From Bugula neritina (lineage: Eukaryota; Animalia; Bryozoa), in contig OZ037767.1 of the NCBI GenBank assembly GCA_964035545.1, positions 8,256,581-8,320,580 on the forward strand: a DNA stretch of 64,000 bases, in the 5' to 3' direction. Under the pieces are notes generated by a model. The model was not told the DNA's origin. It did no database searches and was given only the letters and a program-made list of their open reading frames with translations. Every line of letters begins with the position of its first letter. Positions within the stretch are counted from its first letter, which is position 1. Shown piece by piece: positions 2,334 through 38,146 of the stretch. Made by a program: the position numbers and the translations under genes.

Positions 2334-2742
2334 TGTAGTTAATTTTGCCAGTTCACTATTATTATGTGTGGGTCGACTTAAACAAAGCCACTACACCAGG
2401 TTGTTTACGCTAAGATAACTTTATTATTTACACGAATACAAGACGGTTATTTACTGCTAGCATGAATAGAAAACGATTACATAATTAGTGAGCTTTAATA
2501 CACAACTACTCTAAATGAAGTCCCAAGCTGCTCTGCCGGCTAGCTACTCAGCGCACTGCAACTACGAGTAGCTAGCCCCACCTGCTATCAATTAGTGTGA
2601 CTGTCCTGATTGGTGGTTACTAGTGGTGCCACTGCTGTCCATAGCTACAATCCGACAGGGTAGAACTCACAATATAATAAACAATATAGAGTGAACCTTT
2701 TCGATTAATACAATAATAATTGCACTACTAAAATCCATCACA
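2334..2742 (-). repeat. Element A 3' LTR
   Basis: Direct repeat of 9551-9959, adjacent to the PPT. Confidence 0.95.
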
Positions 2743-2996
2743 CTCTCCTCACCTATCGAAAAGTACTCTCTATACTTAATATTTACATGGCAGTAACACA
2801 CAAATAATGATTAAAATAACATAGGTTTTTACAAAACTAGAGGTACACACTTGAACAAGAGAAAAATATATACATGGTAAATAATATAAGTATAATAAAA
2901 CGAGTGTTCACGCCGTAGTCCATAACACCTATTTACATTACTTGACTAGCCAGAATGGGGGGGGGGGGGGTACGTGTGTAGGTGGCCGCGCTTCTA

Positions 2997-4206
2997 TCAC
3001 TTCTTCGCCAGCCGTTTCTCTAGTCGGGTCTGCAACTTAGCCAGCTCGGTGGCCGCTCGCTTCTGTTCCTTACTGAGGCGGGCCATACGCCGTTGCACTT
3101 TCCTAATGTCAGTTAGTAGGGACTGGTCAGGGTCGCTGTCATCTCGGGGTGTGTTGCTAGCACCCCTCCTCTTCTTGTGGGTGTGTCGGGGCACATAGGA
3201 GATCATCGTCGTTGGGGGTTGTGAGTCCTTAGTTACAGCGCGTCCAGTACGGGTTACTATGACGCGTAGAGGTCGAGTGGTTACGTCTGGAGGGTAGGTT
3301 GTCGTTGTCTCAGAGGGTTGGGGGTCTGCATCAGAGTCACTCTCTACTGTAGGTCGGGTAGCGGGGAAGTGGTCTAGGAGAGTCTGTCGTCGGTCTGGGT
3401 CGGTCACGTGAGGTAGTATCAGATCCCTGAACTCAGTGTAGGAGTCCGCGTCAACTTCATATAAGTGTCCAATGTAGCAGTCTCGAGTCCGTTGATGCCG
3501 TAGTATAGTGTCCCTGCAGAAGTGGTGGACTCCGCAGGGACAGAAAGTCACAGTAAAATGTTGGGGGACATGTATTTTAAGTCTCTTGGTAGTGGATAGT
3601 GTTCGTCTACACTCAGTACATTGTCTATTATCGTCTGACCCTACTAGTGCTTGAATCAGCGTACGAGTCCGTCGAGTCGTCCAGTTAGTCCGTTTGAGTG
3701 AGGCTTGTGGCAGTGCTAAAATATTGTCATTGGCTACAGTCAAGTCAGTTATGTTCATCTGCATCGCAGTGTGTCGGTCGGTGTTTGTCGGGGAGTCCGT
3801 AAGTGTCGATAAGTGTATGTCGGACAGCATGTCTACCCCTGCTTCTGACATGCTGTCCCAGTTAGTCGTAGGTGTGTCAAGTAATGCCTGTATCTCGTCA
3901 GATACAGGCTCAGTCTCACCTGCAATAGAGTATTTAAATTCATGTATTATTTGAATTACACCCTATGCGTGGGACTCCCGTTCCAAACGATATTGATAAT
4001 CGAGTCTCACAGTCTGTCACTCACTGATCGTATAATCAGCTGAGTCGACCGTCCCACTCTAACTATCAAATATTGTCTGAGGTCAGGAAATTCAACTTTA
4101 TCATTATGACAAAGTGAGACTGCTGTCGCTACCAGAGTAAACTCTAATTAATTATTATAGAATTTCTAGTAGACTTACCCCCCAAAACAGTTGCTGCATT
4201 AGACAT
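2997..4206 (-). CDS. Element A ORF3: zinc-finger + coiled-coil accessory protein; predicted exons 4179-4206 and 2997-3919 (316 aa)
   Basis: 284-aa ORF 2997-3851 with CTEC-x12-H-x3-H and CPC-x12-H-x5-C. Frame stays open to the TTGCAG acceptor at 3920; GTAAGT donor at 4178 follows ATG TCT AAT...GGG G. Confidence 0.8.
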
Positions 4207-4447
4207 AATGATGCTGCTGTTTTCTTAGGGCTCGTAGATAGCCAAATTGTTTACTGCAAAAGACGTGCTGCCTGTTTGCTAGCTGTAATTGAAAAGGGCG
4301 CTCACAGCTAGAGTGCTTATGTAACACCCTATACGCTGTTGAGTTGGCTACGCTCTGCTGACCCCCGGCTGACCTATTCAATCCGCCACTGGGTCGCCTG
4401 TTATCAATTACCTCGCTCCCCCAGACTTGTTTGTGAATGTCGCCATG

Positions 4448-7400
4448 CTACAGAATACTGTGCATGTCGACCAAGTCACACAAGAAGTCTTTTAAATAAG
4501 ATGGTGGCGCCCTGGTACGTTGGCTACGGTCCAACGGTACCGGGGAGTTTGCTGCGACTGGTGACTCTTCCACCACGGGTGGTGTCGCCAGTACGGGGGG
4601 GTCCACCAGTACGGGTGGCCCTCCCCCAGCTGCCTCTCCCTCATTATTTTGAGGAATTTCCATCTCATCCGGAACGATGGGCCTGTCGACCGGCTCCACA
4701 GGTGGTGGGGCTGGCTCTGACAGGTCTTCAGGTGTGTCGGCCTCCTCTTCCTGGGGTGGAGGAGGCTGGGGCTGGTCGGCTGACGCATCAGCCGCCCCGT
4801 CCTGGTCTGGCAGTATCTCCTCGATCTCTCGATACGCCATGGGTCGCCCCCTCGTAGGAGGGCGCCTAGCTGGCTCTAAGAGAGGAGGTGCTTGACCTGC
4901 CGCATCAGGACTTGCCCAGTGAGGTTTTAGCCGTGCCTCGTTCTGGATCGACACTTGTCCAGACCGTTCCACTTTGTAGGTATGATTTGGCATTACCTCA
5001 ATTACGCAGTAGGGACCTACGAACTTCGGCTGCAACTTGGCTGCCTGTCCGCGCCTGCGGCGATGACTGGTCATCCAGACCCAGTCCCCCACCTTGTATA
5101 AAGGTGGGTCGTCAGAGTCACCACTTCTGACCTGCCACTGCTGCTCACGTAGCACCTCGTGAGCCGTCCCCATGCGTTTTACGAGCTTGTCCACGTAGTC
5201 TTGGACATTGCTCTCAGGAGTCGGAACATGATAGGTTACATGCTCAGGAACCCTGGTTTCTCTCCCCAGCATGAGAAAATTAGGGGTTTCCAGTGTACTG
5301 GAGTGAGGGGTACTACGGTACGCGCGCATGATCTGCGGCAACACCAAGTCCCACTCTTCCTGGCTCCTACCGATAAGCAGGCTTCTCAGAGAGTCCCCTA
5401 GCATTCGGTTGTTCCGCTCCACAACCCCGTTCCCTTGCGGGTGATACGGGGTCGTCCGACTCTGGTTTAGCCCCCACACTTTACAGATATCGCTCATGAG
5501 TTGCGACTGAAACTGGGAGCCTTGGTCAGAGTGTATCTGCTCCGGCAAGCCAAAATAGCAGAACACCTGCTGATCCAAGGCTCTGGCCACCGAGGGGGCC
5601 GACGCATCTGGAATAGCCAGTGCATCAGCCCACCGTGTGAAATGGTCAGTTAATACCAGTATCCAGTTATTACCTCTCGCTGTTGTGGGCATGGGGCCTA
5701 CCAGATCGACAGCAACCACCTGCCACGAACGACCGGCATGGAGGCGACACCTCCCTGCGGTCTCAGTGGGGCGGCCATGCTTGCTAGCTTGGCACACCTT
5801 GCACTTCCGCACCCGGAGTCGGACATCCCGGGTCATACCGGGCCAAAACCACTGGAGTTGAAGACACCTAGTCACCCGGCTAGCTCCTGCGTGAGCTTGC
5901 TTATGGGTGTCCCAGATCAACTCCCGCCTCAGAGCTGACGGGCAGACTACCCTCTCTCGCTCACTGCGATTGGTGCCGGCTGCCAACGTAATCGTTAGCA
6001 GCCCATCGCTGTTGAACCTGAGGGAGTCCCAGCGGTCACAGAAGTACTTAAACTCAGTACTCTTCACTCGCTGTTCGGCCTCACTCGGCCGCCGTCCCTC
6101 CTTCTTGGCCCGGACTAGGTCAGCTACCACTCCTGGTAGCGTGGACTGGAGCCGACATAGCTCCCTGACGTTCCGAAGCAACGTGGGGTTTGGGTGAAGG
6201 TTGTTAACAGCTTTGTTAGGAGATTCAGACAGGAGTTGCCCTTCTTCCCAGCTGTACACACCCGCTTTCCCCAACTGCGCTTCAACGTCTGAGCGAGGGG
6301 GTCCACCGTCCCTGCGCTCAATATTCTGGCATTGCTTACACCCATCTGCCTGGCGGCGACTGAGTCCATCTGCATTACCGTGTTTCTTACCGGGTCGATG
6401 CTCGATCCGATAGGAAAACTCTGCCAGGATCTCTAGCCAGCGCGCTACTTGGCTTGATGGTTTTGCCCGTCGACACAGCCATATCAGGGATGCATGATCC
6501 GTCCGAAGCCGGAATGTGCGCCCATATAGATATGGTCTAAAGTGTTTGACCGCCTTGACTACTGCCAGGAGTTCCCTCCTGGTTGTACAGTAGTTCTTCT
6601 CAGGCGCCGACAGGGCCTTGCTATAGTAAGCCACCACATTATGGTTACTGGCATCAGTATCCAAAATGTACTCCTTCGCAGGGTCAGGATACGCCAAGAT
6701 GGGTGCTTCCACCAGGCGATTCTTCAGGTGGTCAAATGCCTTCTGCTCGGCCTGCGTCCACTGCCATCGCACCCCCTTTGCGGTCAGCCGATTTAACGGC
6801 TGTGCAATTCCGGCGAAGTCTGGTATGTACTGACGATAGTACTCTATCACTCCCAGGAATGCCCGCAATTCAGGGAGGTCGACAGGGACGGCCCAGTCCC
6901 TCACAGTCCGTACCTTCTCGAGGTCGGTGGCAACCCCGTCTCGACCAACTACATGGCCCAGGTACTTAACCTCGCGTTGCAGTAATGCACACTTCAAGGG
7001 CTTGAGCTTCAGGCCCGCATCTCGGAGTCTGTCGAACACCTCCCTGAGTCGACTGACATGTGTGTCGAAGTCGGGGGAGATGATGATGACATCATCGAGA
7101 TAGATGAGCAAGGTCTTCCAGTGCAGTCCACTCAGGACCTGCTCCATGAGTCGCTGGAAGGTGGCTGGTGCGGACGTAAGTCCGAATGGCAACACCTTCC
7201 ATTTCCAGAGCCCATCCCACGTTATAAACGCGGCCTTGTCCTGTGCTTCAGGACTCAGGGGCACCTGCCAATACCCGCTTAGCAAGTCCAATGTGCTGAA
7301 GAACTTGCTACCAGCTAAGGCATCGAGCGACTCATCGATCCTCGGGAGAGGGTAAGCGTCCTGGATGGTCACGCTGTTCAGCCTGCGATAGTCAACGCAA

Positions 7401-8671
7401 AACCTCCAGCTACCATTCTTTTTCCGAACCAGAACAACTGGAGATCTCCAGGCCCCATGGCCTGGCTCGATCAGGTCCCGGTTCAGAAGGTCTTGCACCT
7501 GACGGCTCACTTCTCTTTCCTTCTCTTTCCGGGCGTCGTCCGCTGTTTCCAGCGCGGGCCCTACATCCTCCTCTTGCACGAAGTGGAACTTCCCTACTAG
7601 ATACCCAGCCGATAATTCTACCGGCTCCGTGAAAGGGTTTACGCACTGGACCAGGAACTCCCTCCGCTCATCCAGTCTATTCAGACTGTTAGCGAGCTGG
7701 ACGCCCCCCAGTGCACCTTCCACCACTCCGAGCTCGGAGAATTCCTTACAGTTCACCCTGCAGCGAACTGTAGCCCGAGAGCGCCCAGGTACAGTACAGC
7801 GCTGTACCACCTGCACTCCCCCCACCAAGGGTCGGCCAAATCAGACGACACAGGCCAGCTCACGCCCCGCCATCACTACTGCCGACTTGCTAAAGTCTAT
7901 GTAGCACCTGTGTCGTTTCAGAAATGGCATGCCCAAGATGGCATCCTCCTTGAGTTGACTGACGATGAAGGTCTCACTGATTGTCCGATCACGGACTCTA
8001 CCAGTCAACTGGATTACCCCATAGAAAGGAATACACGACCCGTCCGCCAACGTGCCGTGCTCCCCTTCACATGGTTCTAGGCTAGCCCTGTCCCTGGCAC
8101 TGAGAGTGTCGAATAGACGTCGACTCAGTAGATATGTGGTGCACCCAGTATCCAACAGGAATGTGACAGCTTTGCCAGCAAGTTTGCCGGGGAGGAAATA
8201 GCTGCTTCCATATGGCTGAGCGCTCACTGAGCGATTTGTCTCTTGAGGCGACACCTCATGTGCATGGAGTTGGAGATGCACCTGTGCTTTTCGGTTGCGA
8301 GGGGGTTGTCGACGTTGCATGGGCGGGCAGGGTACGTCTCGGTCTCGCTCACACACGGGCGGCCGAGTGAATTCTCGGACTGATGCTCGTGTGGGCAACC
8401 GAGGAAAATCCCTGTTGTGCTCCCATTCGTCGTTCACTCCCTCATCAAGCAAACCTTCAAAGCGGTTTTTGAGTGCCCAAGCCGGAGGTATTGGTGGGCC
8501 TTGCGGCCGACTCACTCTCCTTGGGGCTTGCCACTCTGGCGAAGGCGGCCTCCTCACCCGGTGGGGTGTGGGCCTTGGCTTCTGCCTTGGGGGGTTAAAC
8601 TGGGGCCCACGGTAGGCGGAAGTTACCGTGGGCCGTCGCTGTTTAACCGCCTCCCACTGCCGCGGGGGCAA
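4448..8671 (-). pseudogene. pol: Element A pol (PR-RT-RNaseH-IN); frameshift near 7841 and two in-frame internal deletions relative to D
   Basis: LLDTG protease, LPFGL and YLDD RT, TDAS and TDH RNase H, HHCC plus DDE integrase, GPY motif. Confidence 0.95.
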
Positions 8672-9495
8672 TTTCGTATGAGGTGCCCACCACTACCACA
8701 GCCCCAGCATACGGGGCCGCGCCTGTCGTCGACAGCTACCGATGACCTCCTGGGTCTCTCGGCTGTCGCCTGCTGGCGCAGTTGCCTGATCTCGGCTAGC
8801 AGTTCTCGAATCAAGCTCGTGGTCAAGCTAGTAGATTCGTCTGCTGCTGCCGCTGCGCCTTGAACAGCTGTCTTCACCGGCGATGTCGACACGTCGTCTG
8901 CCCCGACCTGCTGCACTGTCGCACCAGGTCGACTTGCACTGTCGGCTTGGAAATAGGCATTCCCAAGCCTTAGAGCTCTCTCCATAGTCTCAACTTCGGC
9001 CACCAGCAGATGCTGTTTTAGACCGAGGTTGTTAATAGACTGGAGGAATGCATCCAGTGCTAGGCTCTGTCGACTGTCGGCAGGCAAGTCGCTGTAAGCA
9101 ACTTGTGCCAGTCGTTTGACTGCGGTAGCATGCTCTCGTAGATTGGTCTTAGGATTTCTTCTAAGACTCTGCAGTTGCACACGAGCATCTCGAGCGGTTA
9201 ATCCAAACCGAGCTCAGAGTGCTTCAAATATGTCACCGACATTCTGGCTTATCCCATAGGGTTTAGCCGGCCCTGTCAGACACAACCGCAGCTGGATCAG
9301 AGTAACCCTATTCGGCCATCCGCAGATGTCCGCCACATCACTAAACTCAGTGATGAATTGCTCCACATCTTCTTCCCCTGAGAAGATGGGAGCCCGCAAG
9401 TGGTACCTGTCCATAGGCAGCGCTGGGCCGCCTATGTAATCCTCCTCTACTGCTGCTGGCTCCTGTCTGGGCGCGTCGACGACTTCGTCGGCCAT
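8623..9495 (-). pseudogene. gag: Element A gag (premature stop at 9214; CCHC knuckle CWGCGSGGHLIRNC)
   Basis: ORFs 9214-9510 and 8623-9180 are collinear with D gag. Confidence 0.9.
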
Positions 9496-9531
9496 CTTAC
9501 TCTCTGGCAAGGAGCATTTGTATTAAGTGGG

Positions 9532-9549
9532 ATCCCACCGCTGCCACCA
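9532..9549 (-). promoter_or_regulatory. Primer binding site, tRNA-Leu (TGGTGGCAGCGGTGGGAT); same or 1-nt variant PBS in B 10373-10390, C 26454-26471, D 28938-28955, E 45330-45347
   Basis: Complementary to the 3' end of metazoan tRNA-Leu(AAG/TAG) plus CCA; 1 nt from the LTR. Confidence 0.9.
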
Positions 9550-9550
9550 C

Positions 9551-9959
9551 TGTAGTGAATTTTGCCAGTTCACTATTATTATGTGTGGGTCGACTTAAAC
9601 AAAGCCACTACACCAGGTTGTTTACGCTAAGATAACTTTATTATTTACACGAATACAAGACGGTTATTTATTGCTAGCATGAATAGAAAACGATTACATA
9701 ATTAGTGAGCTTTAATACACAACTACTCTAAATGAAGTCCCAAGCTGCTCTGCCGGCTAGCTACTCAGCGCACTGCAACTACGAGTAGCTAGCCCCACAT
9801 GCTATCAATTAGTGTGACTGTCCTGATTGGTGGTTACTAGTGGTGCCACTGCTGTCCATAGCTACAATCCGACAGGGTAGAACTCACAATATAATAAACA
9901 ATATAGAGTGAACCTTTTCGATTATTACAATAATGATTGCACTACTAAAATCCATCACA
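9551..9959 (-). repeat. Element A 5' LTR
   Basis: Direct repeat of 2334-2742, adjacent to the PBS. Confidence 0.95.
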
Positions 9960-11182: not shown

Positions 11183-14100
11183 GTGCTACCACTCACCAAC
11201 CGCTTTAGCCAGCTACCGGAGACGGAGCTGGCCGGCGAGGTCTCTCGGGACATCGGAAGGGAACTAAACACCCCTCCGCCGAAGAAGCGGCGCCCGCCTA
11301 CCACCAAACGGACACCACGCCGTTTGACCGAGGCTACGCATGCTGGGGAAGTAAGGTTGCAGCCGCATGGGGAGAGCTACTTCCTGCCCGGGAAGGTAGC
11401 TGGCAAGGCTGTTACATTCTTGCTGGACTCCGGTTGCAACACGAATCTCCTCAGCCGACGAGTCTTCGATGCCCTCCCTGCTCAGGTGAGGAAGGGGTTA
11501 GCTCCCTACACCGGGGAACCTGGCACCCTCGCAGACGGGTCGTGTATCCCTTTCTACGGTGTTGTAGAGCTGCCTGGTCGCGTCCGCGACCAGGCCGTCC
11601 AAGAGACATTTATCCTCAGTCAGCTGGAAGAGGATGCTATCCTGGGGACGCCGTTCTTGAAACGACACCAGTGCCACATGGACTTCCATAAGTCCGCCAT
11701 ACTAATGGCAGGCCGGGAGCTCTCTTGTGTCGACAAGTTTGATCGCCCCCTGGTCGGGGGCGTGCAGGTGGTCCGTAACTGTACGGTACCCGGCCGCTCC
11801 CGGGCGACCACTCACTGCAGAGTGAATGACCGCCAGCTCTCTGGATTAGGGGTTGTCGAAGGAACGCACCCGAGAATCCAACTCGCCAGCAGATTAAATT
11901 GGCTGACTGACCGGGGGAGATCTTGTTGCAGTGCGTCAACCCCTTTTCAGAGTCGGTGACACTACCGTCTGGATCCCTATTGGGCCGTTTCCACACGGTC
12001 CAAGAGGGAGACATAGGACCGTCGCTGGGCGAAGTGACGGAGGGTCGCCAAGAGCGCCCGTCTGTATGGCGGGGGACCGTCCCGGAACACGTCCAAGAAC
12101 TATATGAGTCAGCCTGCGAAGGCTGTGCGGGCAACAAGGAGCGCCAGGCTATGGCCCAGTTGCTGCGCCAGTATGGGGACGTGTTCAGCAGCGGAGACCA
12201 GGACATGGGCTTAACCAAAGCCGTCTGTCACGAGATACCGCTAGCTGCCGGGACTTTGCCTATCCGCCAACCCACCCGGAGACTGGGACCAGTGAAAGAA
12301 AAAGGAGGTCAGCCGACAAGTCCGAGATCTTTGGGACCGCGGCATCATAGAGCCTGCACATAGTGCGTTGAGCTCGCCGGTCGTCCTGGTCCGGAAGAAA
12401 AACAGCAGTTGGCGGTTCTGTGTGGATTACCGCAAACTTAACAGCGTGACCATACAGGACGCCTACCCTCTACCTCGGATCGATGAATCCCTGGACGCCT
12501 TAGCCGGCAGCAAGTACTTCAGTACTTTAGACTTGCTGAGCGGTTACTGGCAAGTCCCCCTCAGTCCCGACGCCCAGGAAAAAGCGGCGTTCATCACCAG
12601 AGACGGGCTGTGGAAGTGGAAGGTACTGCCCTTTGGGTTAACCTCTGCTCCTGCTACCTTCCAGCGGCTCATGGAACAGGTCCTCAGCGGCCTCCACTGG
12701 AAGACGCTGCTCGTCTACCTCGAGGACGTCATCGTGATCTCCCCAGACTTCGCGACCCACGTCAGTCGTCTGAGGGAGGTCTTCGAACGACTCCGAGGTG
12801 CTGGTCTCAAGCTCAAACCTTCCAAATGCGCTCTCTTGCATCCGGAGGTGAAGTACCTAGGGCACGTAGTCGGCCGTGAGGGCTTGGCGACGGACCCTGA
12901 CAAGGTGCGGGCTGTGGCCGACTGGGTCACCCCCCAGGATTTGACCGGACTCCGGGCTTTCCTGGGGCTGGTAGGGTATTATAGACAATACATACCAGAC
13001 TTTGCGGGAGTTGCACAGCCGTTAAATCGGCTCACCGCAAAAGGGGTGGCCTGGCAGTGGACAGCCGTCGAACAGAGGGCATTCGACAGTCTCAAGCGCC
13101 GCTTGCTAGAGGCTCCAATTCTGGCCTACCCAGACCCCGCTCTGGAGTATATCCTTGACACAGACGCCAGTGACCAGAATGTTGGCGCTGTGCTGTCACA
13201 GGTACAAGAGGGCCGGGAAGTAGTCATAGCTTATTACAGCAAATCACTCTCACCTCCAGAGCGCAATTACTGCACCACTCGCAAGGAGTTGCTGGTAGTA
13301 ATCAAGTCAGTGAAACACTTCCGGCCTTATCTCTACGGTAGGCCGTTCCGCTTGCGGACGGACCACGCCTCCTTGATCTGGCTGTGTAAGAGAGCTGAGC
13401 CGTCCAGTCAAGTCGCCCGATGGCTCGAAGTCCTGGCCGAGTTTTCATACCGGATCAAACATCGACCCGGTAGGAAACACGGCAATGCAGACGGGCTGAG
13501 CCGGCGGCCGGACGAGGGGTGTAAACAGTGTCATCATTTTGAGAGAAGGGATGGGGGTCCCCCAAGATCTGAGTTGGTGACACTGGAACACTTTGAGGTG
13601 AGCTACGACTGGGACCAAGGTCGACTCCGACCGAGGGATCCTAATCCACCGGAGGCTGTCAACCATCTCCGCGCCAACCCTGTCTTGGCTCGCAATGTTA
13701 GAGAGCTGCAGAAACTCCAGGAGGACCTCCCTGGGGTAGTAGCTGACATATATCGAGCTAAACGGGAAGGGCGACGACCCAGTGAAGAACAGCTACGGCA
13801 AGGGTGCGCCGAATTACGGCTGTACTGCCAACGCTGGGACTCTCTGCGGATCGGGCCAGACGGTCTACTGACCATCACCTTTGCCACCGACCAGAGTAAC
13901 CATGGTCGAGAAAGGGTGATCTGCCCAGCCGCCATCCGCCGAGAGCTAGTATGGGACACCCACCGACAGGCTCACGCCGGAGCTCAGAGGGTGCTTATCA
14001 AGCTAAGGCTCCGGTGGCATTGGCCCAACATGGAGCGTGACGTCCGCCTAAGGATCAAGCAATGCACAGGATAGTTAAGGGCAACCTTTTAGCTGCAACT

Positions 14101-16411
14101 GCCTTGCTGAGGTTTGCATTGTAATCATATAAGAATTCAGTACCAGTAAAATAAAATCTCAACTAATTGTGCTAGAGTCAAAATTTAAAAACTATGTTAT
14201 AGATCTTCTTTTTCTCCAGTGTAAGTTTTTTGGAAATTTCAATTTTCATTTTTTTTGTGAAGTTATAGACAAAAAACTGCCCAATTTTGGCCAATTTTGC
14301 CTGAAAAGCTGACTTTTCAGTACCAGTAAAATATCTCAGCAGCAAAGCATGATATCTGAATAAAAATTGCACTGCTGGAATCCTGAGATATTTCTCCAGT
14401 GTTATTTTTTTTCTTTTTCCAATAACTCTGCTAGATTGCTCATAAATTGGTGATTTATACACTGAAAATGCCATATTTTCTCATAAGAAACTAGCAGCGC
14501 GCAGAACTTCACGCTTCACTGAGCACGTAGGGATGAGAAGATATTGGCGTCTATATAATAATTACAGACTAGCTAGCTGGCAGGCTATAATAAATAGCTC
14601 GCTTTGTACTTTGTTTATGTAGCACCCATAATGGAATGTTGATATATTACGCAGCCCTAATGAAGATTGGTGCTTATTGGTTGTAGTTTAATCTTAGGCT
14701 AAACAATTACAAGTAGGCAACACGCATGCCACCCGCAGCGCAATATTATTCAAGAACCTGAACTACATTTTGAATGAAATTTATGATATTCTTAGTGAGG
14801 ATGCCCTTAACTATCCTGTGTGCGAAGTCTGCCAGGCCAGCAAGCATGGCCGTCTCCCTAGGGAGGCGGGACGGCGTAGGCTCTATGCTGGCAGGCCTTG
14901 GCAGGTGGTGGCTGTTGACTTGGTCGGACCCATGCCTCTCACCCCCAGAGGAAACAGTTGGATTCTAGTGCTGACTGACCACTTCACTAGGTGGGCAGAC
15001 GCACTGGCTATTCCAGACGCGTCTGCCCCGACAGTGGCCAGCACACTAGACCAGCGTGTATTCTGCTACTTTGGGTTGCCCGAGCAACTACACTCGGACC
15101 AGGGGTCGCAATTTTAGTCCCAACTGATGAGCGACCTCTGCCGCCTCTGGGGTGTAAACCAAAGTAGGACCACTCCATACCACCCTCAAGGTAACGGAGT
15201 GGTCGAACGCAACAACCGGATGCTGGGCGACGCACTCCGCAGTCTATTACTCGGCCGAGGCCAGGAGGAATGGGATCTCGTGTTGCCACAGGTTATGAGG
15301 GCTTATCGCAGCACGCCCCATACCAGCACCGGCGAGACCCCCAACTTCTTCACCCTCGGTCGTGAGACACGGGTGCCCGACCACCTCGCCTATCATACTC
15401 CGGAACCAGAATACTCTGTCCATGAGTACGCTGGGGAAATGATAGAGCGTCTGAGAGTCGCACACGAAATACTGCGAGATAAGCAGTGGCAGGTGCGACA
15501 GGAAGACGCTGATGAACCACCCCTCTACCAGACCGGGGACTGGGTCTGGATGATCAACTACCATAGGCGTCGAGGACAGGCGGCTAAATTACAGCCTAAG
15601 TTTGTAGGACCCTACGTAGTAGTTGAGGTGATGCCCAATCACACTTACAAGTTGGAGCGGTCTGGACAGGTATCTGTCCAGAATGAACCCCGCTTGAAAC
15701 CCTATTGGGCTAGCCCAGGTGCGGCCGGGGGTGCCCCCCCCATTGTTAAAGCCCAGGAGGCAGACAACAATGCGGGGGCGGCGGCGGCGGCATAAACCCA
15801 ATGATGAGTGGGTTATGCCACGGACAGAAGACTTGGCAAGGCAGGAGAGGCCACCTCCCCCAACGGGGCCACACCCTCTGCCTCCAGAGCAAAGCCGTTC
15901 GACCCCAGAGCTACCACCACCACTTCCGGATATAAGTATACTTTCGGAAGTGCAAAACCCCCACACGGGAGGGGCTCCGTCCGGAGAGAACAGAGGGGAA
16001 GAAGGAATAACAGCTGACGGGAGGCAGGAAACACCACCAGTGGAGAATAACAACCCACTGGTGAGTACACCACCTCCCTCACCAGCTACACCACCTTCCC
16101 CGGCGTCTACCACTAGTACATCTCCCCTCCTTGAAAGGGGACAACGTACTAGAAGACCCCCAGCTTATCTTCAAGACTTCGTATGCGACCGCATTACAAG
16201 CGGCAGGTATGAAAGTCCAGCTGGGCGCCGTACGGAAAGACTGGCAGCAAAGCGTGGGAGTTATGAACACCACGTAAAAACCAAGTTTTGCGAAAACGGA
16301 ATAGCGAGTGGAATTACCACTCTCCGGGCATACATTTTCGGTCTCGCACAACAAACACGCTGCCCAGCCTTTTCCTACGCCGACGCGGTCAAGAGTAGAC
16401 GTACTTTCTAA
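11183..16411 (+). pseudogene. pol: Element B pol (frameshifts, YLED in RT, DNA transposon inside integrase)
   Basis: LLDSG, RT, RNase H and IN motifs across ORFs 11183-16411. Confidence 0.95.
14065..14820. mobile_element. Non-autonomous CACTA/EnSpm-like DNA transposon (756 bp)
   Basis: TIR CACAGGATAGTTAAGGGCA, 2-bp TSD TG; removal restores integrase KQCEVC. Confidence 0.9.
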
Positions 16412-16496
16412 TCCATCTGCATCCAAGCTTGAACGTCGAGTATGAGTATAAATACCGAGTTCCCAGGTAAGCTTGCTTAGATCTAACACTCCACTA

Positions 16497-17591
16497 ATGG
16501 AAGTAGATCTCACCTCAGTCAACTCTGATTTAATCGATCTGATTGAATCACAGTTACTGGAGACAGAGTCACACGTGAATGACGACGAGAACATAGTAAT
16601 GGCGGATGATCTACTAGATCTGGAGCTTGATAATATGTCTCTCAGTCAGTTTACACGTTCTGACACAGTCTCTCGAGTGCCGTATAAAAAGATGCATGAC
16701 TCTCAGACTAATAACAGTCGATTGTCATCAGAATTATGCTGTAAAGATCAAACTCGATCTAACAATAATTCTGCTCTTTTAGACGCCACTCGCTCTCCTG
16801 ACTACGGAGATATGCCACCATTAGAAATGGCCTGGAATAGTGAGACACCTCCTACCTCCCTACCAGACGTGCTACTTCAGCAACATAGCTGGGTCGCACC
16901 AGAGACAGAAAAGCTGATTCAACTACACCGCGGCCATGACGAATGCACCACCTGCAGGCTGTGTCAGCAGTACTTCTCCACCCATCGCCGTTTGCGCGTC
17001 CACGTACCGCAGCACTTCCTAACTACTCTCTGTCCCTGTGGTGAATATAGTTACCACAGGGACTACATTCTCAGACATCAGCGTACTATGGACTGCCATG
17101 TGGGACACTTGTACGATGTGGACAAATACAACTTCCCCACCTTTCTCAATCTGATCAAACCTTTCATTAAGGATCTCCCCCGCTTTGAACGGCTCAAACA
17201 CGGATTCCCCTCACCTCGCATCATCACTCATGGACCGTGTCCAAGACCTCCCAGACATAAGAAACCTACCAAGCCATCTCACTCTCCTCCCGCACAGACC
17301 ATACCTCGTCCCTCCACCCTACCTCAAGTTCTACTTCACCGAGTTGAGATACCCCAAAAACGACGTTCCCCTTCCCCACTCCTATGCAGCCTTCTTCTAA
17401 ACGGCGATGGAGACCCTCCTCCCCGAAACGGCAGCCTCCTACAGCCCGCAACATAAAAGAAGTCGAGCTCCGTATGTATGAATTAGAAGCTGAGATTCAA
17501 CGGCTGACCCCCCAGAGTTGCTGCAGCCACTTCCGAAATGAAGACCCTTAAAGCTTCCGTGGCCCTCCTCAAACGGGGCGATCAAGACTGA
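16497..17591 (+). CDS. Element B ORF3 zinc-finger protein (frameshifts before and within the C-terminal coiled coil)
   Basis: ORF 16473-17456: acidic N-terminus, CRLC-x12-H-x3-H, CPC-x12-H-x5-C, Pro-rich region; heptad tail ELRMYELEAEIQRL in another frame. Confidence 0.8.
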
Positions 17592-18205: not shown

Positions 18206-18266
18206 ATATTAATATGCATGTTAGTACACATATTAGTACACATATTAGTACACATATTAGTACACA
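18206..18266. repeat. Right part of the TAGTACACATAT minisatellite
   Basis: Same units as 2148-2333, starting directly after the B 3' LTR. Confidence 0.9.
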
Positions 18267-18645
18267 CTATACACCTCTAGTTTTTAGCTATTTTTTTACA
18301 GTTTATAGCTGCTATGTAGCTATATAGTTTCTTGCATTAAACTGATAAAATATTAACAATTTTAGCTATATATGCATGGTTTCTTTAATTTTGCTTTATT
18401 TTCGATGTTTCATCCTAATTTTTAAGTAAATTTAGGTGTGTAGGCATGATGCTTTTTTTAGGATTTGAATCAATTTTCAATTATTATATTTAGTATTGCT
18501 GCAATTGGAACATTTGATTGTTCGACATTGTAGAACTATTACTAATTTGAGCACAGCTTAATTTCAATTACTTTTAAAAATACTCGTTATATGTTTCAAC
18601 CGAGCATATTCATTACCTCTCAATAAAAGTAATTAGCTCACTCAC

Positions 18646-19867: not shown

Positions 19868-20942
19868 TCAGTGTTTGGCAAGCCGATGTTTGGCCTGGCG
19901 GGCACGTAGCTTCCTTTTAATCCGGCCAACCGAGCCCTTTAACTGATAAAGTCCCGTTGTAGTACTAAGCAGATCCAGTGCTAACTGGGTGAACTCAGCC
20001 TGCAGCCGGAGGAGACGCTCCTCTACAGTGGCCAGGCGAGCGGGGTCTGGGGACGGCGTCCGCCTTCGACGAGGGGGGAACCTGGAAATTGGGTCCGCCT
20101 TCTAGTCGGAGGTGAGGAGACTTCTTCTCCTTCAGGATAGACAAACTCTTCGGGGGTATACACAATCTGAGGGCGGTCGGAGACCAACGGGGATTGTTGC
20201 CTGGCATAGTATAATACATGTTGAAAACCCGAAGTCAGGACGGCCAACAGCATTGCCTTCTTTACTAAGGGTCGTATCAGAGTCAGGAATTCTGGGTAGA
20301 GTTTAGCATCTACCACGTAATTCTCTCCGAAGAAACAGCCCACCCCCCCGGTGTCTAGTGACGGGATAGGGGTAGACATCATTGTATCCGCAGGGACAGA
20401 ATGTGAGTAAGAGGTGGGCGTTGACATGTAGCTTCAGGGAGCGAAGAGAGGCACACTCTTCGTTACCAATCTGGCACCATGTCCTTCCTTTGGGTCCCTA
20501 GGCTGTTTCTATCTGCTCCTTCGTTTCCGGCGACACCCACCGCCAGCGGCGGCGCAGTGGCTCAGGCCGGTCACCATTGGTGTACTCCTTGTGATGCGGA
20601 ACGGGAGGTGCTCTATCCCATACCCTGGTTGTAACGGGTCGAGTGTAACCTGAAAGAGTTTTAACAGCGTTAGTATAATACACTGCAGTGTTGTCGGCTT
20701 AGACAGCCTGGCAACTTCTCGTTCAGTTAACACTCGTAGAGATTTGTGGTAGTGAATAGTTGGATAGAACACATATTACAATGAGATTGTAAAATTTATA
20801 TGTCAAACTGAGTTCCTACCACGGTAGTTCACTAACCTATCTCCAGCTGAATTGACTCAGGTGAGTCGGAGCTGAGTGATGCAATCTAGATTTCATATCA
20901 AGATATAGTTAACTCACCCCACAATCCGTTGTCGTAAGACAT
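19868..20942 (-). pseudogene. Element C ORF3 zinc-finger/coiled-coil protein; predicted exons 20918-20942 and 19868-20649; disrupted
   Basis: WVSPETKEQI, LKLHVNAH..FCPCG, YVVDAKLYPEFLTLIRP, heptad tail; GTGAGT donor, TACTAAC branch point, CTTTCAG acceptor. Confidence 0.78.
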
Positions 20943-28528: not shown

Positions 28529-28936
28529 TGTGGTAGATTTTAGTGGTGCAAGTATTATTGTATTAATCGAAAAGGTTCACTTCATATTGTTTATTATCTT
28601 GTGAGTTCGACACTGTCGGAGTGCAGCTATGGACAGCAGTGGCACCACTAGTAACCACCAATCAAGACAGTCACACTAATTGATAGCAGGTGGAGCTAGC
28701 TACTCGTAGTTGCAGTGCGCTGAGTAGCTAGCTGGCAGAGCAGCTTGGGACTTCATTTAGAACAGTTGTGTATTAAAGCTCACTAATTATGTAATCGTTT
28801 TCTATTCATGCTAGCAGTAAATAACCTTCTTGTATTTGTGTAAATAATAAAGTATCTTATCGTAAACAACCTGTCGCAGTGGCTTTGTTTAAGTAGACCC
28901 ACACATAATAATAGTGAACTGGCAAAATTCACTACA
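28529..28936 (+). repeat. Element D 5' LTR
   Basis: Direct repeat of 35691-36098. Confidence 0.95.
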
Positions 28937-28991
28937 CTGGTGGCAGCGGTGGGATTCCACTTAATACAAATGCCCCTAGCCAGGGAGTAAA

Positions 28992-29869
28992 ATGGCCGAC
29001 GAAGTCGTTGACGCGCCCAGACAGGAGCCAGCAGCAATAGAGGAGGATCACATAGGCGGCCCAGCGCTGCCTATGGACAGGTACCACTTGCGGGCTCCCA
29101 TCTTCTCTGGAGAAGAAGATGTGGAGCAATTCATCACTGAGTTCAGTGATGTGGCGGACATCTGCGGATGGCCGAACAGGGTTACTCTGATCCAGCTGCG
29201 GTTGTGTCTGACAGGGCCGGCTAAACCCTATGGGATAAGCCAGAATGTCGGTGACATATTTGAAACAATACGAGCTAGGTTTGGATTAACCGCTCGAGAT
29301 GCTCGCGTGCAACTGCAGAGTCTTAGGAGAAATCCTAAGACCAATCTGCGAGAGCACGCTACCGTAGTCGAACGACTGGCACAAGTTGCTTACAGCGACT
29401 TGCCTGCCGATGGTCGACAGAGCCTAGCACTGGATGCATTCCTCCAGTCTATTAACAACCTCGGTCTTAAACAGCATCTGCTGGTGGCCGAAGTTGAGAC
29501 TATGGAGAGAGCTCTAAGGCTTGGGAATGCCTATTTCCAAGCCGACAGTGCAAGTCGACCTGGTGCGACAGTACAGCAAGTCGGGGCAGATGACGTGTCG
29601 ACGTGTCGACGTCGCCAACGAAGACAGCTGTACAGGTCGCAGCGGCAGCAGCAGACGAATCTAGCTTAACCACGAGCTTGATTCGAGAACTGCTCGCCGA
29701 GATCAGGCAATTGCGCCAGCAGGCGACAGCCGAGAGACCCAAGAGGTCGTCGGTAGCTGTCGACGACAGGCGCGGCCCCGTATGCTGGGGCTGTGGTAGT
29801 GGTGGGCACTTCCTACGAAGTTGCCCCCGCGGCAGTGGGAGGCGGTTAAACAGCGACGGCCCACGGTAA
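28992..29869 (+). pseudogene. gag: Element D gag (frameshift from an 8-bp duplication GTGTCGAC at ~29595)
   Basis: ORFs 28992-29669 and 29603-29869; CCHC knuckle. Confidence 0.92.
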
Positions 29870-32800
29870 CTTCCGCCTACCGTGGGCCCCAGTTTAACCC
29901 CCCAAGGCAAAGGCTACGGCCCCCACCCCATCGGGTGAGGAGGCCGCCTTCGCCAGAGTGGCAAGCCCCAAGGAGAGTGAGTCGGCCGCAAGGCCCACCA
30001 ATACCTCCGGCTTGGGCACTCAAAAACCGCTTTGAAGGTTTGCTTGATGAGGGAGTGAACGACGAATGGGAGCACAACAGGGATTTTCCTCGGTTGCCCA
30101 CACGAGCATCAGTCCGAGAATTCACTCGGCCGCCCGTGTGTGAGCGAGACCGAGACGTACCCTGCCCGCCCATGCAACGTCGACGACCCCCTCGCAACCG
30201 AAAAGCACAGGTGCATCCCCAATTCCATGCACATGAGGTGTCGCCTCAAGAGACAAACCGCTCAGTGAGCGCCCAGCCATATGGAAGCAGCTATTTCCTC
30301 CCCGGCAAAATTGCTGGTAAAGCTGCCACATTCTTGTTGGATACTGGGTGTACCACAAATCTACTGAGTCGACGTCTCTTCGACACTCTCAGTGCCAAGG
30401 ACAGGGCTAGCCTAGAACCATATGAGGGGGAACACGGCACGTTGGCGGACGGGTCGTGTATTCCTTTCTATGGGGTAATCCAGTTGACTGGTAGAGTCCG
30501 TGATCAGATGATCAGTGAGACCTTCATCGTCAGTCAACTCAAGGAGGATGCCGTCTTGGGCATGCCATTTCTGAAACGACACAGGTGCTACATAGACTTT
30601 AGCAAGTCGGCAGTAGTGATGGCGGGGTGTGAGCTGGCCTGTGTCGACCGATTTGGCAGACCCTTGGTGGGGGGAGTGCAGGTGGTACAGCGCTGTACTG
30701 TACCTGGGCGCTCCCGGGCTACAGTTCGCTGCAGAGTGAACTGTAGGGACATCTCCGAGCTCGGAGTGGTGGAAGGTGCACTGGGGGGCGTCCAGCTCGC
30801 TAACAGTCTGAATAGACTGGATGAGCGGGGGGAGTTCCTGGTCCAGTGCACAAACCCTTTCACGGAGCCGGTAGAATTACCGGCTGGGTCTCTAGTAGAG
30901 AAGTTCCACTCCGTGCAAGAGGAGGATGTAGGGCCCGCGCTGGAAACAGCGGACGGTGCCCGGGGGGTACCCACTAGAGACGGCAGGGGGCCGGTGCCTG
31001 AACACGTAGCAGAGTTGTACGAGGAAGCCTGTGATGGCTGTGAGAGCAAGCGAGAACGCCTGGAGATGGCGCGGCTACTCTCTGAGTACAAGGACGTGTT
31101 CAGTTGCGGCGACCATGACATGGGTCTGACTGAGACTGTCCGTCATGAGATACCCCTGGCGGCGGGGACGGTGCCGATTCGGCAGTCGACCCGCCGGTTA
31201 GGTCCTGAGAAGGAGAGAGAAGTGAGCCATCAGGTGCAAGACCTTCTGAACCGGGACCTGATTGAGCCAGGCCATGGGGCCTGGAGTTCTCCAGTCGTCC
31301 TGGTTCGGAAAAAGGATTGTAGCTGGAGGTTTTGCGTTGACTATCGCAGGCTGAACAGCGTGACCATCCAGGACGCTTACCCTCTCCCGAGGATCGATGA
31401 GTCGCTCGATGCCTTAGCTGGTAGCAAGTTCTTCAGCACGTTGGACTTGCTAAGCGGGTATTGGCAGGTGCCCCTGAGTCCTGAAGCACAGGACAAGGCC
31501 GCGTTCATAACGCGGGATGGGCTCTGGAAATGGAAGGTGTTGCCATTCGGACTTACGCCCGCACCAGCCACCTTCCAGCGACTCATGGAGCAGGTCCTGA
31601 GTGGACTGCACTGGAAGACCTTGCTCATATATCTCGATGATGTCATCGTAATCTCCCCCGACTTCGACACACATGTCAGTCGACTCAGGGAGGTGTTCGA
31701 CAGACTCCGAGCTGCTAACCTGAAGCTAAAGCCCTCGAAGTGTGCATTACTGCCACGCGAGGTCAAGTACCTGGGCCATGTAGTTGGTCGAGACGGGGTC
31801 GCCACCGACCCCGAGAAGGTACGGGCCGTGAGGGACTGGGCCGTTCTTGTCGACCTCTCTGAATTGCGGGCATTCCTGGGGCTGGTAGGGTACTATCGTC
31901 AGTACATACCAGACTTCGCAGGAATTGCACAGCCGTTAAATCGGCTGACCGCGAAGGGGGTGCGATGGCAGTGGACGCAGGCTGAGCAGAAGGCATTTGA
32001 CCCCCTGAAGGATCGCCTGGTGGAAGCACCCATCTTGGCGTATCCTGACCCTGCGAAGGAGTACATTTTGGATACTGATGCCAGTAACCATAATGTGGGG
32101 GCTGTGCTATCGCAGGTCCAAGATGGTCGCGAGGTGGTGGTGGCTTACTATAGCAAGGCCCTGTCGGCGCCTGAGAAGAACTACTGTACAACCAGGAGGG
32201 AACTCTTGGCAGTAGTCAAGGCGGTCAAACACTTTAGACCATATCTATATGGGCGCACATTCCGGCTTCGGACGGATCATGCGTCCCTGATATGGCTGTG
32301 TCGACGGGCAGAACCATCCAGCCAAGTGGCACGCTGGCTAGAGATCCTGGCAGAGTTTTCTTATCGGATCGAGCATCGACCCGGTAAAAAACACGGTAAT
32401 GCAGATGGACTCAGCCGCCGCCAGGCAGATGGGTGTAAGCAATGCCAGAATATCGAGCGCAGGGACGGTGGACCCCCTCGCTCGGACGTCGAAGGGCAGT
32501 TGGGGAAAGCGGGTGTGTACAGCTGGGAAGAAGGGCAACTCCTGTCCGAATCACCCAACAAAGCTGTTAACAACCTTCACCCAAACCCCACGTTGCTTCG
32601 GAACGTCAGGGAGCTATGTCGGCTCCAGTCCACGCTACCAGGAGTGGTAGCTGACCTAGTCCGGGCCAAGAAGGAGGGACGGCGGCCGAGTGAGGCCGAA
32701 CAGCGAGTGAAGAGTACTGAGTTTAAGTACTTCTGTGACCGCTGGGACTCCCTCAGGTTCAACTGCGATGGGCTGCTAACGATCACGTTGGCAGTCGGCA

Positions 32801-34395
32801 CCAATCGCAGTGAACGAGAGAGGGTAGTCTGCCCGTCAGCTCTGAGGCGGGAGTTGATCTGGGACACCCATAAGCAAGCTCACGCAGGAGCTAGCCGGGT
32901 GATCAGGTGTCTTCAACTCCAGTGGTTTTGGCCCGGTATGACCCGGGATGTCCGACTCCGGGTGCGGAAGTGCGAGGTGTGCCAAGCTAGCAAGCATGGC
33001 CGCCCCACTGAGACCGCAGGGAGGCATCGCCTCCATGCCGGTCGTCCGTGGCAGGTGGTCGCTGTCGATCTGGTAGGCCCCATGCCCACTACAGCGAGAG
33101 GTAATAACTGGATACTGGTATTAACTGACCATTTCACGCGGTGGGCTGATGCACTGGCTATTCCAGATGTGTCCGCCCCCTCGGTGGCCAGAGCTTTGGA
33201 TCAGCAGGTGTTCTGCTATTTCGGCTTGCCGGAGCAGATACACTCTGACCAAGGCGCCCAGTTTCAGTCGCAACTTATGAGCGATCTCTGTAGAGTGTGG
33301 GGGGTAAACCAGAGTTGAACGACCCCGTATCACCCGCAAGGGAACGGGGTCGTAGAGCGGAACAACCGAATGCTAGGGGACTCTCTGAGAAGCCTGCTTA
33401 TCGGTAGGAGCCAGGAAGAGTGGGACTTGGTGTTGCCGCAGATCATGCGAGCGTACCGTGGTACCCCTCACTCCAGTACACTGGAGACCCCTAATTTTCT
33501 CATGCTGGGGAGAGAAACAAGGGTTCCTGAGCACGTAACCTATCATGCTCCGAATCCCGAGAGCAATGTCCACGACTACGTGGACAAGCTCGTAAAACGC
33601 ATGGGGACGGCTCACGAGGTGCTACGTGAGCAGCAGCGGCAGGTCAGAAGTGGTGACTCTGACGACCCACCTTTATACAAGGTGGGGGACTGGGTCTGGA
33701 TGACCAGTCATCGCCGCAAGCGCGGACAGGCAGCCAAGTTGCAGCCAAAGTTCGTAGGTCCCTACTGCGTAATTGAGGTAATGCCAAACCATACATACAA
33801 AGTGGAACGGTCTGGACAAGTGTCGGTCCAGAACGAGGCACGGCTCAAACCTCACTGGGCAAGTCCTGATGCGGCAGGTCAAGCACCTCCTCTCTTAGAG
33901 CCAGCTAGGCGCCCCCCTATGAGGGGGCGACCCATGGCATATCGAGAGATTGAGGAGATACTGCCAGACCAGGACGGGGCGGCTGATGCGTCGGCCGACC
34001 AGCCCCAACCTCCTCCACCCCAGGAAGAGGAGGTCGACACACCTGAAGACCTGTCAGAGCCGGCCCCACCACCTGTAGAGCCGGTCGACAGGCCCATCGT
34101 CCCGGATGAGATGGCAATTCCTCAAAATCATGAGGAAGAGGCAGCTGGGGGAGGACCACCCGTACTGGTGGACCCCCCCGTACTGGCGACACCACCCGTG
34201 GTGGAAGAGTCACCAGTCGTAGCAAATTCCCCAGTGCAGTTGGAGCGTAGGCAACGCACTAGGGCGCCTCCATCTTATTTAAAAGATTTCTTGTGTGATG
34301 CAGTGGAAAAACATCCATCAGCTAACATAAAAGAAATCTGGGGGGACGAGCAATTGAGAGTTGCATTTCCAAGATATAAGGAGACGCAATTGTGA
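29821..34395 (+). pseudogene. pol: Element D pol (single premature stop at 33316)
   Basis: 1165-aa and 341-aa ORFs in the same frame; all PR, RT, RH and IN motifs present. Confidence 0.96.
29845..29888 (+). promoter_or_regulatory. Putative -1 ribosomal frameshift signal (G_TTA_AAC, 6-nt spacer, 11-bp hairpin)
   Basis: GGCCCACGGTA/TACCGTGGGCC perfect stem; pol is in the -1 frame; equivalent signals in A and C. Confidence 0.8.
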
Positions 34396-35690
34396 GTTGC
34401 CTACCCCAGTGGTGTGACACAAAACACCACCGGGGGTAAGAAATGAGCGAAGTCAGCTCGCTAGTGAAAGGGGTATTATACAATCACTTTCACTGCGGAA
34501 AGCGTTCTTTTCTGATTCAACTGCCAACGTGCACGCATGTACTTGGCAGGCTGGCGCACTACGTAGTCTAAGTGGGCAGCAGACTAAAGTCAGGGCTGTC
34601 TTATGGTAAGTCTACTAGTATAATTCTATTATTTAAGTAGAATTCAAGCTGGTAGCCTAAATCAGTCTCGCTTTATCATAACGATAAAGTTGATTTCCCA
34701 AGTCAGGTGATTCACTGACGACTTGAGTGGGGCGGTCAACCACATGATTAATTATTAATCAGTGGTTAGTGATTGCGAGACTCAGTCGAGGTGTCGTACT
34801 GACAGGTGCAAACCCCTTCAACAGTTGTTGGCATTCTGTTGCAGGTGAGACTGGAATGGCGGGGCCAAATTCCTTCTCATGGCATAGCGCAGTCACATCA
34901 TTCATCTCAACTTTTGGCTAGATGCTGGCTGCTTGACTGGACTCTTGTAGCGACATGACAGCAGTGCTGATGGCTGTCATAACAGAAGTGCCAGAGACAA
35001 CTGGCACGTAGCTCCTTCCTCCCCTCCTCTGGCGATCACGTTCCGGTATAGGCAGAGTAGTTCTTCCCTCTTCTCTCCTGTGGCTACATCCTAATAAGAA
35101 GAAGAAGTAATATTAAAGAGTTCTGCATGAAGTTAAAAAGTAAAAATAGAAGTTAAGAAGAAGAAGTAATATTAAAGATTCCTGCATGAAGTTAAAAATA
35201 GAAGTTAAGAAGAAGAAGTCTTCACTTTCCTCCTTTTGGGAATTCGACGGCGACAAGGTAGACGTTGGTAGTGAAGAGACCAGTCAACCCCCCTCCATCT
35301 CCCCCCCTTTGGGGAGATTTCTTCGTACTCTCCAACCCCCCTTTCCTTCTCTCCCCCCTTTGGGAGAGACTCCTTTGCCACGCTTGATTCTTCTGGGGAC
35401 TTCTCGACCCCCATCGCTTGGCTTCGACTAGACGAGTGTGAAGCAGTACATCCCCTTCTCACTAAGTTCATGCTACCCTATATCATTTGGTGAGAGACCC
35501 CCCCACCTACCCTGTGACTGACCCGGATCGATCGTGTACAACATGGACATCGTTTTGAATACATATTTTGTGTTTCTCTCATTCCTGGTTGTTTTGATCT
35601 TTTTGTTTTATTTTACCTTTATTCCTTTTATTATTTTTTTGAAATTATGTGCATCAATCGTAGAGTGTACTTTTCGATAGGTGTGGCGAG

Positions 35691-37063: not shown

Positions 37064-37075
37064 TATGTGTACAAT

Positions 37076-37831: not shown

Positions 37832-38146
37832 ATGACACAACTCAATAAATGCATGGCATCCACATATGTGGACACTAATTTTTTTTGACATGCACTGAGT
37901 GAAAATTGAAAAACCTGTAAATTTATGTTTCGAGACATAAAATCAATTATATTTAGTAAAAAATTTAAAACTTAGCTGTTAGAAAAAGATAATTCATGCA
38001 TGAAAGAGTTAATGATTGTTTGTAACAGTATGAACTTGGTCTTAAATAATTTTTTTTTAAATAATTCAAATAGACCAATGATAGTAATTCTAAATTTTTG
38101 AATAACTTTATAATAATTAAATTAAATAACTTTGGATTTTATATAT

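Follow-up and report, generated by a model that had tools for sequence, protein, structure and literature searches.

A conserved non-env third open-reading frame of Gypsy elements with a predicted double zinc-finger core, a candidate regulator of its own element

Gypsy elements in the 64-kb window

The window, by which we mean the whole 64-kb stretch of DNA that was analysed, consists of clustered Gypsy LTR elements set in AT-rich DNA, here called A to G. Their class is Ty3/Gypsy, as LTRs, PBS, PPT and TSDs are present and gag is followed by domains in the order protease, RT, RNase H and integrase. The LTR pairs of A, C, D, E and G share 96.5-99.8% identity and that of B 93% over 228 nt; for F an LTR was looked for and none was found. 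All TSDs are 4 bp long and AT-rich (ATAT, GTAT, TTAT, ATAT and ATAG). Element A and its sister D are laid out as follows.

2334-9959, minus strand: Gypsy element A, LTRs at 2334-2742 and 9551-9959 (98.8% identical), TSD ATAT
2743-2757, minus strand: polypurine tract of A
4448-7840, minus strand: pol of A, with RT, RNase H and an integrase with SH3-like C-terminus
9495-9549, minus strand: leader of A, with PBS at 9532-9549, splice donor after 9501 and gag ATG at 9495
28529-36098: element D, sister of A
34396-35660, plus strand: 3' region of D, which keeps donor-like and acceptor-like sites and is without the micro-exon ATG and the zinc-finger exon

Gag, protease, RT, RNase H and integrase follow the Gypsy order in A, with a 14-residue gap in RNase H compared with a relative; premature stops interrupt its gag and pol, and its third open-reading frame (hereafter ORF3) is intact. 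We take its PBS (9532-9549) to be of tRNA-Leu type. D shares 94-95% identity with A in LTR, gag and pol and 63% in the first 560 nt of the spacer. As the LTRs of D are 99.3% identical to each other, D appears to have transposed recently without ORF3, or with help in trans. The diverged 3' region of D holds non-coding purine-rich repeats where A has ORF3, and its leader donor differs from that of A by one base.

The remaining features of the window are set down here as observations in their own right. Element G (56660-62201) is young, with 475-nt LTRs that are 99.8% identical, TSD ATAG and no pol seen; its single 456-codon open-reading frame (57409-58779, plus strand) has a gag-like start, a hydrophobic stretch near the end and no Pfam match. 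The same 12-bp AT-rich minisatellite lies at the ends of A (2161-2333) and B (18206-18286), and a repeat of ~760 nt occurs five times, whole or partial (14060-14820, 37070-37835, 45879-46280, 47131-47609 and 49122-49885), one copy inside the pol of B. The pol frame of B, C and E extends 70-85 codons beyond the integrase tail and ends earlier in A and D, and a short S-Y-A-D-A-V-K motif stands in the pol tails just before ORF3 (B ~16370-16390, C ~21015-20990, E ~40000-39980). An alternative-frame open-reading frame in the pol tail was dropped as a shadow of conserved DNA, its frame being different in B, C and E.

A third open-reading frame behind pol

A preliminary description of this DNA had reported five homologous copies of an open-reading frame between pol and the 3' end, borne by at least three LTR families. 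Tblastn and profile searches of all six frames recovered the five (A, B, C, E and F) where it had placed them, with the ends at 17591, 19868 and 38814 and the start of F at 51869 recomputed, and the LTR families are A/D, B/E and C, F being without a found LTR. The same searches of the window gave no ORF3 match in D or G. Only the copy in A is intact, in a frame open for 321 codons (2997-3962); stops or frameshifts disrupt those of B, C, E and F. A weak tblastn match to the A-family coiled coil (E 0.033) at 63906-63995 on the minus strand is perhaps a sixth copy running off the window.

2997-3919, minus strand: ORF3 main exon of A, beginning at a YAG acceptor in phase 1; first in-frame ATG at 3851
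3810-3836, minus strand: acidic, Leu-rich motif of A in the disordered N-terminal part, a candidate activation domain that also fits an NES pattern
3354-3713, minus strand: double zinc-finger core of A, with Trp-led helix, finger 1, finger 2, Y-x-V-D strand and two helices
3558-3620, minus strand: finger 1 of A, classical C2H2 (C-x2-C-x12-H-x3-H)
3477-3542, minus strand: finger 2 of A, atypical (C-x-C-x12-H-x5-C)
3165-3179, minus strand: basic patch of A, NLS-like
3000-3119, minus strand: C-terminal heptad helix of A, a predicted coiled coil
16442-17591, plus strand: ORF3 of B, micro-exon 16442-16466, main part from 16497, frameshift before the coiled coil
19868-20942, minus strand: ORF3 of C, micro-exon 20918-20942, main exon from 20649, one stop and frameshifts
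38814-39933, minus strand: ORF3 of E, ATG overlapping the pol-tail stop (ATGA), no donor, one frameshift and one stop
51869-53294, plus strand: ORF3 of F, heavily broken

The motifs ascribed to the shared core (W-x3-T-x3-I, C-x2-C-x12-H-x3-H, C-P-C-x12-H-x5-C and G-x2-Y-x-V-D) are all present, as is the altered second Cys in copy C, and behind the core we find the Pro/Thr linker, basic patch and heptad helix that had been noted there, the helix with a pLDDT of 91-98. The metal ligands had also been described as kept; in distant members of the family the fourth ligand of finger 2 is not fixed (C or H, with variable spacing).

ORF3 occupies the position that env has in retroviruses. An env identity was rejected, as it has neither signal peptide nor TM anchor. 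Peak 19-residue hydropathy is 0.65-0.89 in A, B and E, too low for a TM helix, and reaches at least 1.6 in 1 of 101 close homologues. No Pfam match of ORF3 to a viral fusion glycoprotein was found, nor any match of the core model to viral structures at E <=0.001. The earlier verdict of not env holds, as does the lack of a TM helix given for it; contrary to the stated lack of a furin site, E does contain an R-K-R-R tetrapeptide, a furin-like site that is moot since there is no signal peptide or TM helix.

Predicted micro-exon and intron

4179-4206, minus strand: predicted micro-exon of A's ORF3, with ATG, 9 codons plus 1 nt and a GTAAGT donor
3920-4178, minus strand: predicted intron of A, 259 nt, GT..AG, called from sequence signals

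Where the pol frame ends, or shortly beyond, A, B and C each carry an ATG followed by 8-9 codons and a phase-1 GT(A/G)AG donor; D, E and F have no such phase-1 ATG micro-exon. The micro-exon ATG of A overlaps the stop closing the pol-frame tail, as does the ORF3 ATG of E. Shuffled spacers yield such a micro-exon with a chance of 0.17 (A), 0.067 (B) and 0.096 (C). The predicted intron of C is 268 nt long and that of B would be 52 nt. The positions 3919 (A) and 20649 (C), previously read as starts of the open-reading frames, correspond to YAG splice-acceptor signals in phase 1 and not to start codons. The homologue P0012 has the first 8 residues of A's micro-exon peptide followed by the main-exon peptide, with the residue number exactly as predicted; this protein may stem from a transcript, an intron-less copy or a deletion at the short homology common to both junctions. 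The acceptor peptide context recurs in four A-family and two C-family homologues. In the B family, P0107 and P0166 run in frame straight across the supposed intron, and splicing is less clear there owing to these two proteins, the 52-nt intron and the missing donor of E. Further splice donors are present, one in A's leader and others among the opening gag codons of B, C and E, those of B and C being in phase 1, so both single and double splicing are possible. Leader or gag donors stand at 9501, 10454 and 26397. Taken from these signals, a spliced message is the likely source of the ORF3 product.

Fold and spread of the core

AlphaFold2, run on a diverse core alignment, predicts one compact double zinc-finger unit (pLDDT 92.4, pTM 0.84) consisting of a Trp-led helix, finger 1, finger 2, a strand and two helices, with the zinc geometry deduced from residue conservation; an earlier fold from close homologues was poor (pLDDT 58). 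Foldseek with this core gave nothing at E <=0.001 in PDB or viral structures, and unnamed clusters came first in an Atlas search. A wide structural search was topped by Kaiso (Z 3.5, rmsd 2.8, 57 aligned) and SALL4 (Z 3.2, rmsd 2.6, 51 aligned), both among top rows of two-finger DNA-bound proteins that cover model residues 31-91 only and are weak, under the noise level of the tool; no row stood at Z >=5, and neither a function nor a new fold follows from this search.

By sequence, finger 1 finds only C2H2 transcription-factor fingers in PDB. No Pfam family spans the core, the sole matches being C2H2 families to finger 1: zf-C2H2_4 matches 13 of 38 members at E <=0.1, and the window copies reach 14 bits where the cut-off is 27. 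Classical tandem C2H2 fingers are joined by a TGEKP-type linker, whereas finger 2, with its C-x-C pair and variable last ligand, starts 4-5 residues after finger 1 with no canonical linker between them. The bZIP proteins have a basic helix continuous with the zipper; a bZIP identity for the C-terminal part was rejected, as a Pro-containing, low-confidence spacer separates basic patch and coil. The suggestion that the domain belongs to no described family is borne out in Pfam, PDB and the open literature searched, where it is undescribed; an annotation in Repbase, Dfam, GyDB or supplementary files could lower its novelty.

Direct searches returned 29 relatives of A and 72 of B. A profile search of the kind that the preliminary description had proposed revealed a family with no Pfam counterpart, matching 320 clusters of 50%-identity representatives at E <=0.001 (148 at 1e-10), the best 150 of which were examined. 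For the DNA context of relatives, contigs were scanned: the ORF3 profile gave 0 of 195 candidates in metagenome contigs and 0 of 127 in viral contigs; an integrase search gave 0 of 6 in viral contigs and three distant metagenome loci (27-44% identity), none with an ORF3 match. In a 38-sequence core alignment (two window copies plus 36 profile matches picked for diversity), C41, C44, H57 and C67 are invariant and W20, H61, C69, G70, H82, V96 and D97 are kept in at least 90%.

The layout was counted on the 73 of 143 new representatives with an intact finger pattern, of which 40 and 39 had long enough ends. The N-terminus is net acidic in 34/40 and the core net basic in 68/73. Finger 1 has the 12-residue spacing in 55/73, and basic residues are frequent in its helix: R/K stands at +2 in 61/73, R at +3 in 50/73 and R/K at +5 in 54/73. 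An NLS-like patch is found in 15/39 (6.4 in shuffled sequences, with 0/200 shuffles as high) and a heptad repeat in 15/39 (0.39 shuffled). Zinc-finger core, basic patch and coiled coil, first noted in the window, are conserved across distant members. An acidic-hydrophobic pattern, designed after seeing the sequences, is mildly enriched (14/40 vs. 7.5 shuffled), and a strict NES pattern, present in A and B, is not (6/40 vs. 5.1 shuffled).

Selection and exchange between lineages

Purifying selection on the protein had been proposed from the retained metal ligands, and the substitution counts (Nei-Gojobori, in-frame stretches of B and E, one pair of copies) bear this out: dN/dS between B and E is 0.04 (95% CI 0.02-0.09) over the 120-codon core, with 51 of 65 differences at third positions, 0.29 in the N-terminus, 0.19 in the linker and 0.08 in basic patch and coil. 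Pieces of pol give 0.16-0.19 for the same pair, and shifted-frame controls on the core 2.7-2.8. A vs. B yields 0.15 (CI 0.12-0.47), near saturation. On this sequence evidence, ORF3 is a real non-env gene under purifying selection.

For the B/E pair, dS amounts to 1.25 over the core, as compared with 0.19 for the N-terminus and 0.27-0.34 for pol. As the core value is far above those of pol and the N-terminus, the 3' part of ORF3 was probably exchanged by recombination, and ORF3 alleles have probably been swapped between lineages. The N-terminus of the B/E ORF3 (~16560-16860), with its dS of 0.19, is near-identical across B-family homologues, which may reflect a recombination breakpoint or a constraint on DNA or RNA.

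Integrase-fused and gene-model relatives

In several relatives the core shares a frame with pol domains. P0255 (1460 aa) and P0256/P0266 (1855/1941 aa) join RNase H or RT, integrase, core and coil in one frame, with an acidic region between integrase and core, and the pol of P0256 is 56% identical to that of A over 924 aa. Ahead of the core, P0232 has a pol-like tail and P0225/P0246 have a protease. For P0237, which is closely related to P0255, the call begins at a Met of its own, and the ORF3 of the window elements is not fused to integrase.

Of 30 clusters looked up, four had named relatives, all of them bryozoan gene models (Bugula neritina, Watersipora subatra). One bryozoan gene model, XP_067940964.1, has two cores, and two Bugula gene models are adjacent; XP_067944745.1, KAF6040922.1 and KAF6040923.1 are further gene models of the family. 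Watersipora and Bugula gene models (P0205, P0252 and P0265) have a common extra N-terminal domain without a name before the zinc core, and are candidates for a domesticated gene family. An unrooted tree was built over 109 columns from 74 core segments, those left of 105 once near-duplicates had been taken out; 62 of the 74 rows are without known context, and the bootstrap had not fully settled. The named gene models were monophyletic in 0 of its 200 bootstrap trees, and 2-3 changes are needed. Repeated domestication, or TE copies annotated as genes, would fit this tree.

What the ORF3 product may do

It is very likely that ORF3 is a real accessory gene for a nuclear binder of nucleic acid or chromatin. 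Our preferred reading, with a rough probability of 0.4, is that its product would be a nuclear, dimeric, DNA-binding trans-activator of its own element. A spliced sub-genomic message would join the micro-exon at the pol stop (or the first gag codons) to the main exon, the basic patch would direct nuclear import, pairing of the coiled coils would enable two cores to recognise together a short bipartite target, in the LTR or in chromatin close by, and the acidic N-terminus would recruit host co-activators, so that transcription of the own element would be raised. As this action would be in trans, copies such as D could drop ORF3. An acidic disordered arm, a basic zinc core, an NLS-like patch and a coil form the plan of a dimeric transcription factor, which favours trans-activation. 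The strong selection on the core, the likeness of finger 1 to C2H2 transcription-factor fingers and the weak two-finger DNA-bound structural rows point the same way, as do the basic finger-1 helix and core, the acidic N-terminus, the NLS-like patch, the heptad, the micro-exon in A, B and C, the joined P0012 and the tandem cores in some bryozoan models, an arrangement known from zinc-finger factors. Against trans-activation, position +6 of finger 1, a usual base contact, is V/I/L in 54/73, the canonical inter-finger linker is missing, and the LTRs of A, B/E and C have no common 7-mer or 8-mer; they do have 20 common 6-mers (10.3 expected), mostly AT-rich. E without a donor, the two B-family read-through proteins, the recent, ORF3-less D, the position of the structural matches under the noise level and the mildness of the acidic-hydrophobic enrichment also speak against it, and the only tested precedent, CERV, serves RNA export and is described as dispensable for transcription (PMC10309623).

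An exporter resembling Rev, Rex or CERV, in which the spliced product would bind unspliced genomic RNA through its basic zinc core, oligomerise through the coil and export it by a Leu-rich NES, seems unlikely. The Leu-rich N-termini of A and B fit the usual NES spacing, but over the family the pattern is flat (6/40 against 5.1), the 3' regions of A, B and C have no stable RNA structure in corresponding positions, and finger 1 has H-x3-H and not the H-x5-H spacing of dsRNA-binding fingers. On the other side, the splice sites of the genomic RNA itself would create an export problem, and the gag-codon donors in phase with the main exon resemble the N-terminus that CERV shares with Gag; CERV is also spliced, with a leucine zipper, an NLS, a candidate NES and a Cys finger (PMC10309623). 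The integrase fusions, which suit trans-activation less well, lend themselves better to an integration tether, a domain that would read chromatin or DNA for integrase, fused in some lineages and acting in trans in those of the window. P0255 and P0256/P0266, the pol-like tail of P0232, the 56% identity of P0256 pol to that of A over 924 aa and the uniform 4-bp, AT-rich TSDs all suit this; yet ORF3 in the window has its own ATG, out of frame with pol in A and E and preceded by a stop in C, the fused forms retain acidic region and coil, P0237 is called from its own Met and D has the same type of TSD without ORF3, and we consider a tether rather improbable.

Two further readings shift attention to the host. 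The product might be an anti-silencing factor or adaptor that binds a host silencing factor or masks the chromatin of the element, with no direct activation, and a compact, non-canonical finger pair with hydrophobic +6 would suit recognition of a protein or structure; the high core dS of B/E (1.25 vs. 0.27-0.34 in pol), with alleles probably swapped, and the block difference between A and D agree with this, but selection on the core is strongly purifying and not positive, and the basic residues of the helix show the conservation typical of nucleic-acid binders, which leaves such a role improbable. That ORF3 is a captured host gene fragment, a passenger of no help to the element, could be read from the presence of the core in bryozoan gene models, from the Watersipora and Bugula pair with the extra N-terminal domain and from its absence in D. 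We regard this as very improbable, since element-borne copies are under selection with dN/dS far below 1 and the named models never formed one group in 200 bootstrap trees, which repeated domestication fits better.

Comparison with known systems

LTR retrotransposons are usually taken as simple gag-pol(-env) elements dependent on host factors, and CERV is the sole tested regulator in the literature searched. We entertain tentatively, as possible but short of probable, that a Gypsy clade of marine invertebrates is 'complex', having its own two-zinc transcription factor made by multiple splicing through a micro-exon at the pol stop, passing between fused and free states, swapped or dropped between elements and repeatedly domesticated in bryozoans. 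If true, env-less Gypsy elements would have evolved anew the regulatory scheme known from complex retroviruses, with an exon plan like that of Tax/Rex. The family brings in a two-zinc domain so far uncatalogued and hints that hosts can obtain zinc-finger genes from retrotransposons, and the intact copy in A together with the natural pair of A (with ORF3) and D (without) makes these ideas directly testable.

Kaiso, SALL4 and ZBTB fingers resemble finger 1 by sequence and overlay weakly on fingers 1 and 2, but they differ from the core in its C-x-C knuckle, variable last ligand, lack of a linker, hydrophobic +6 and the flanking helices that pack the pair. Chromovirus integrases carry a C-terminal chromodomain, and in P0255 and P0256 the core likewise lies C-terminal of integrase in the same frame; its fold is different, and in the elements of the window it is a separate open-reading frame. 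Tas/Bel1, Tax, Tat, Rev and Rex are encoded at a 3' location by multiply spliced messages with a tiny first coding exon and act in nuclear self-regulation. ORF3 matches them in its 3' location and candidate tiny first coding exon, and departs from them in that the host element is an env-less Gypsy and that the viral structure library holds no sequence or fold match.

Plant LTR retrotransposons have conserved open-reading frames between pol and the 3' LTR, some of them nuclear, for which a regulatory role has been proposed (PMC7264820); there, those in sense orientation resemble env and have TM segments, those found in the nucleus run antisense, and the text covered does not contain the word 'zinc' (PMC7264820). 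A term search of PMC8556966 found no mention of extra open-reading frames in the text covered. The LTR retrotransposons of bdelloids have family-specific non-env ORF3s, described as typically made from spliced messages and gained or lost between families, in the env slot and with a presence that varies between elements, as here (PMC5408684). Those ORF3s are GDSL esterases, DEDDy exonucleases and TM or coiled-coil proteins, and neither 'zinc' nor 'finger' appears anywhere in the main text of that paper (PMC5408684).

A close counterpart is CERV of Cer1, a Ty3/Gypsy element of C. elegans, a non-env regulatory protein from a spliced mRNA that has a leucine zipper, an NLS, a candidate NES and a zinc-binding loop (PMC10309623), much as predicted for ORF3. 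As described there, it is a nuclear protein of 517 aa that has exons in common with gag, a C4 loop and a G-protein-like domain and that exports RNA (PMC10309623). ORF3 lies behind pol and encodes a C2H2 and C-x-C finger pair, which sets it apart from that description, and no search with ORF3 returned a CERV-like match. The kind of gene, as non-env third open-reading frames and CERV, is already known, whilst the literature searched describes neither this domain nor its spread, nor that it exists both fused and free; new here are the likely intron, the integrase-fused relatives, the relatives among bryozoan gene models and the ORF3-less sister element D.
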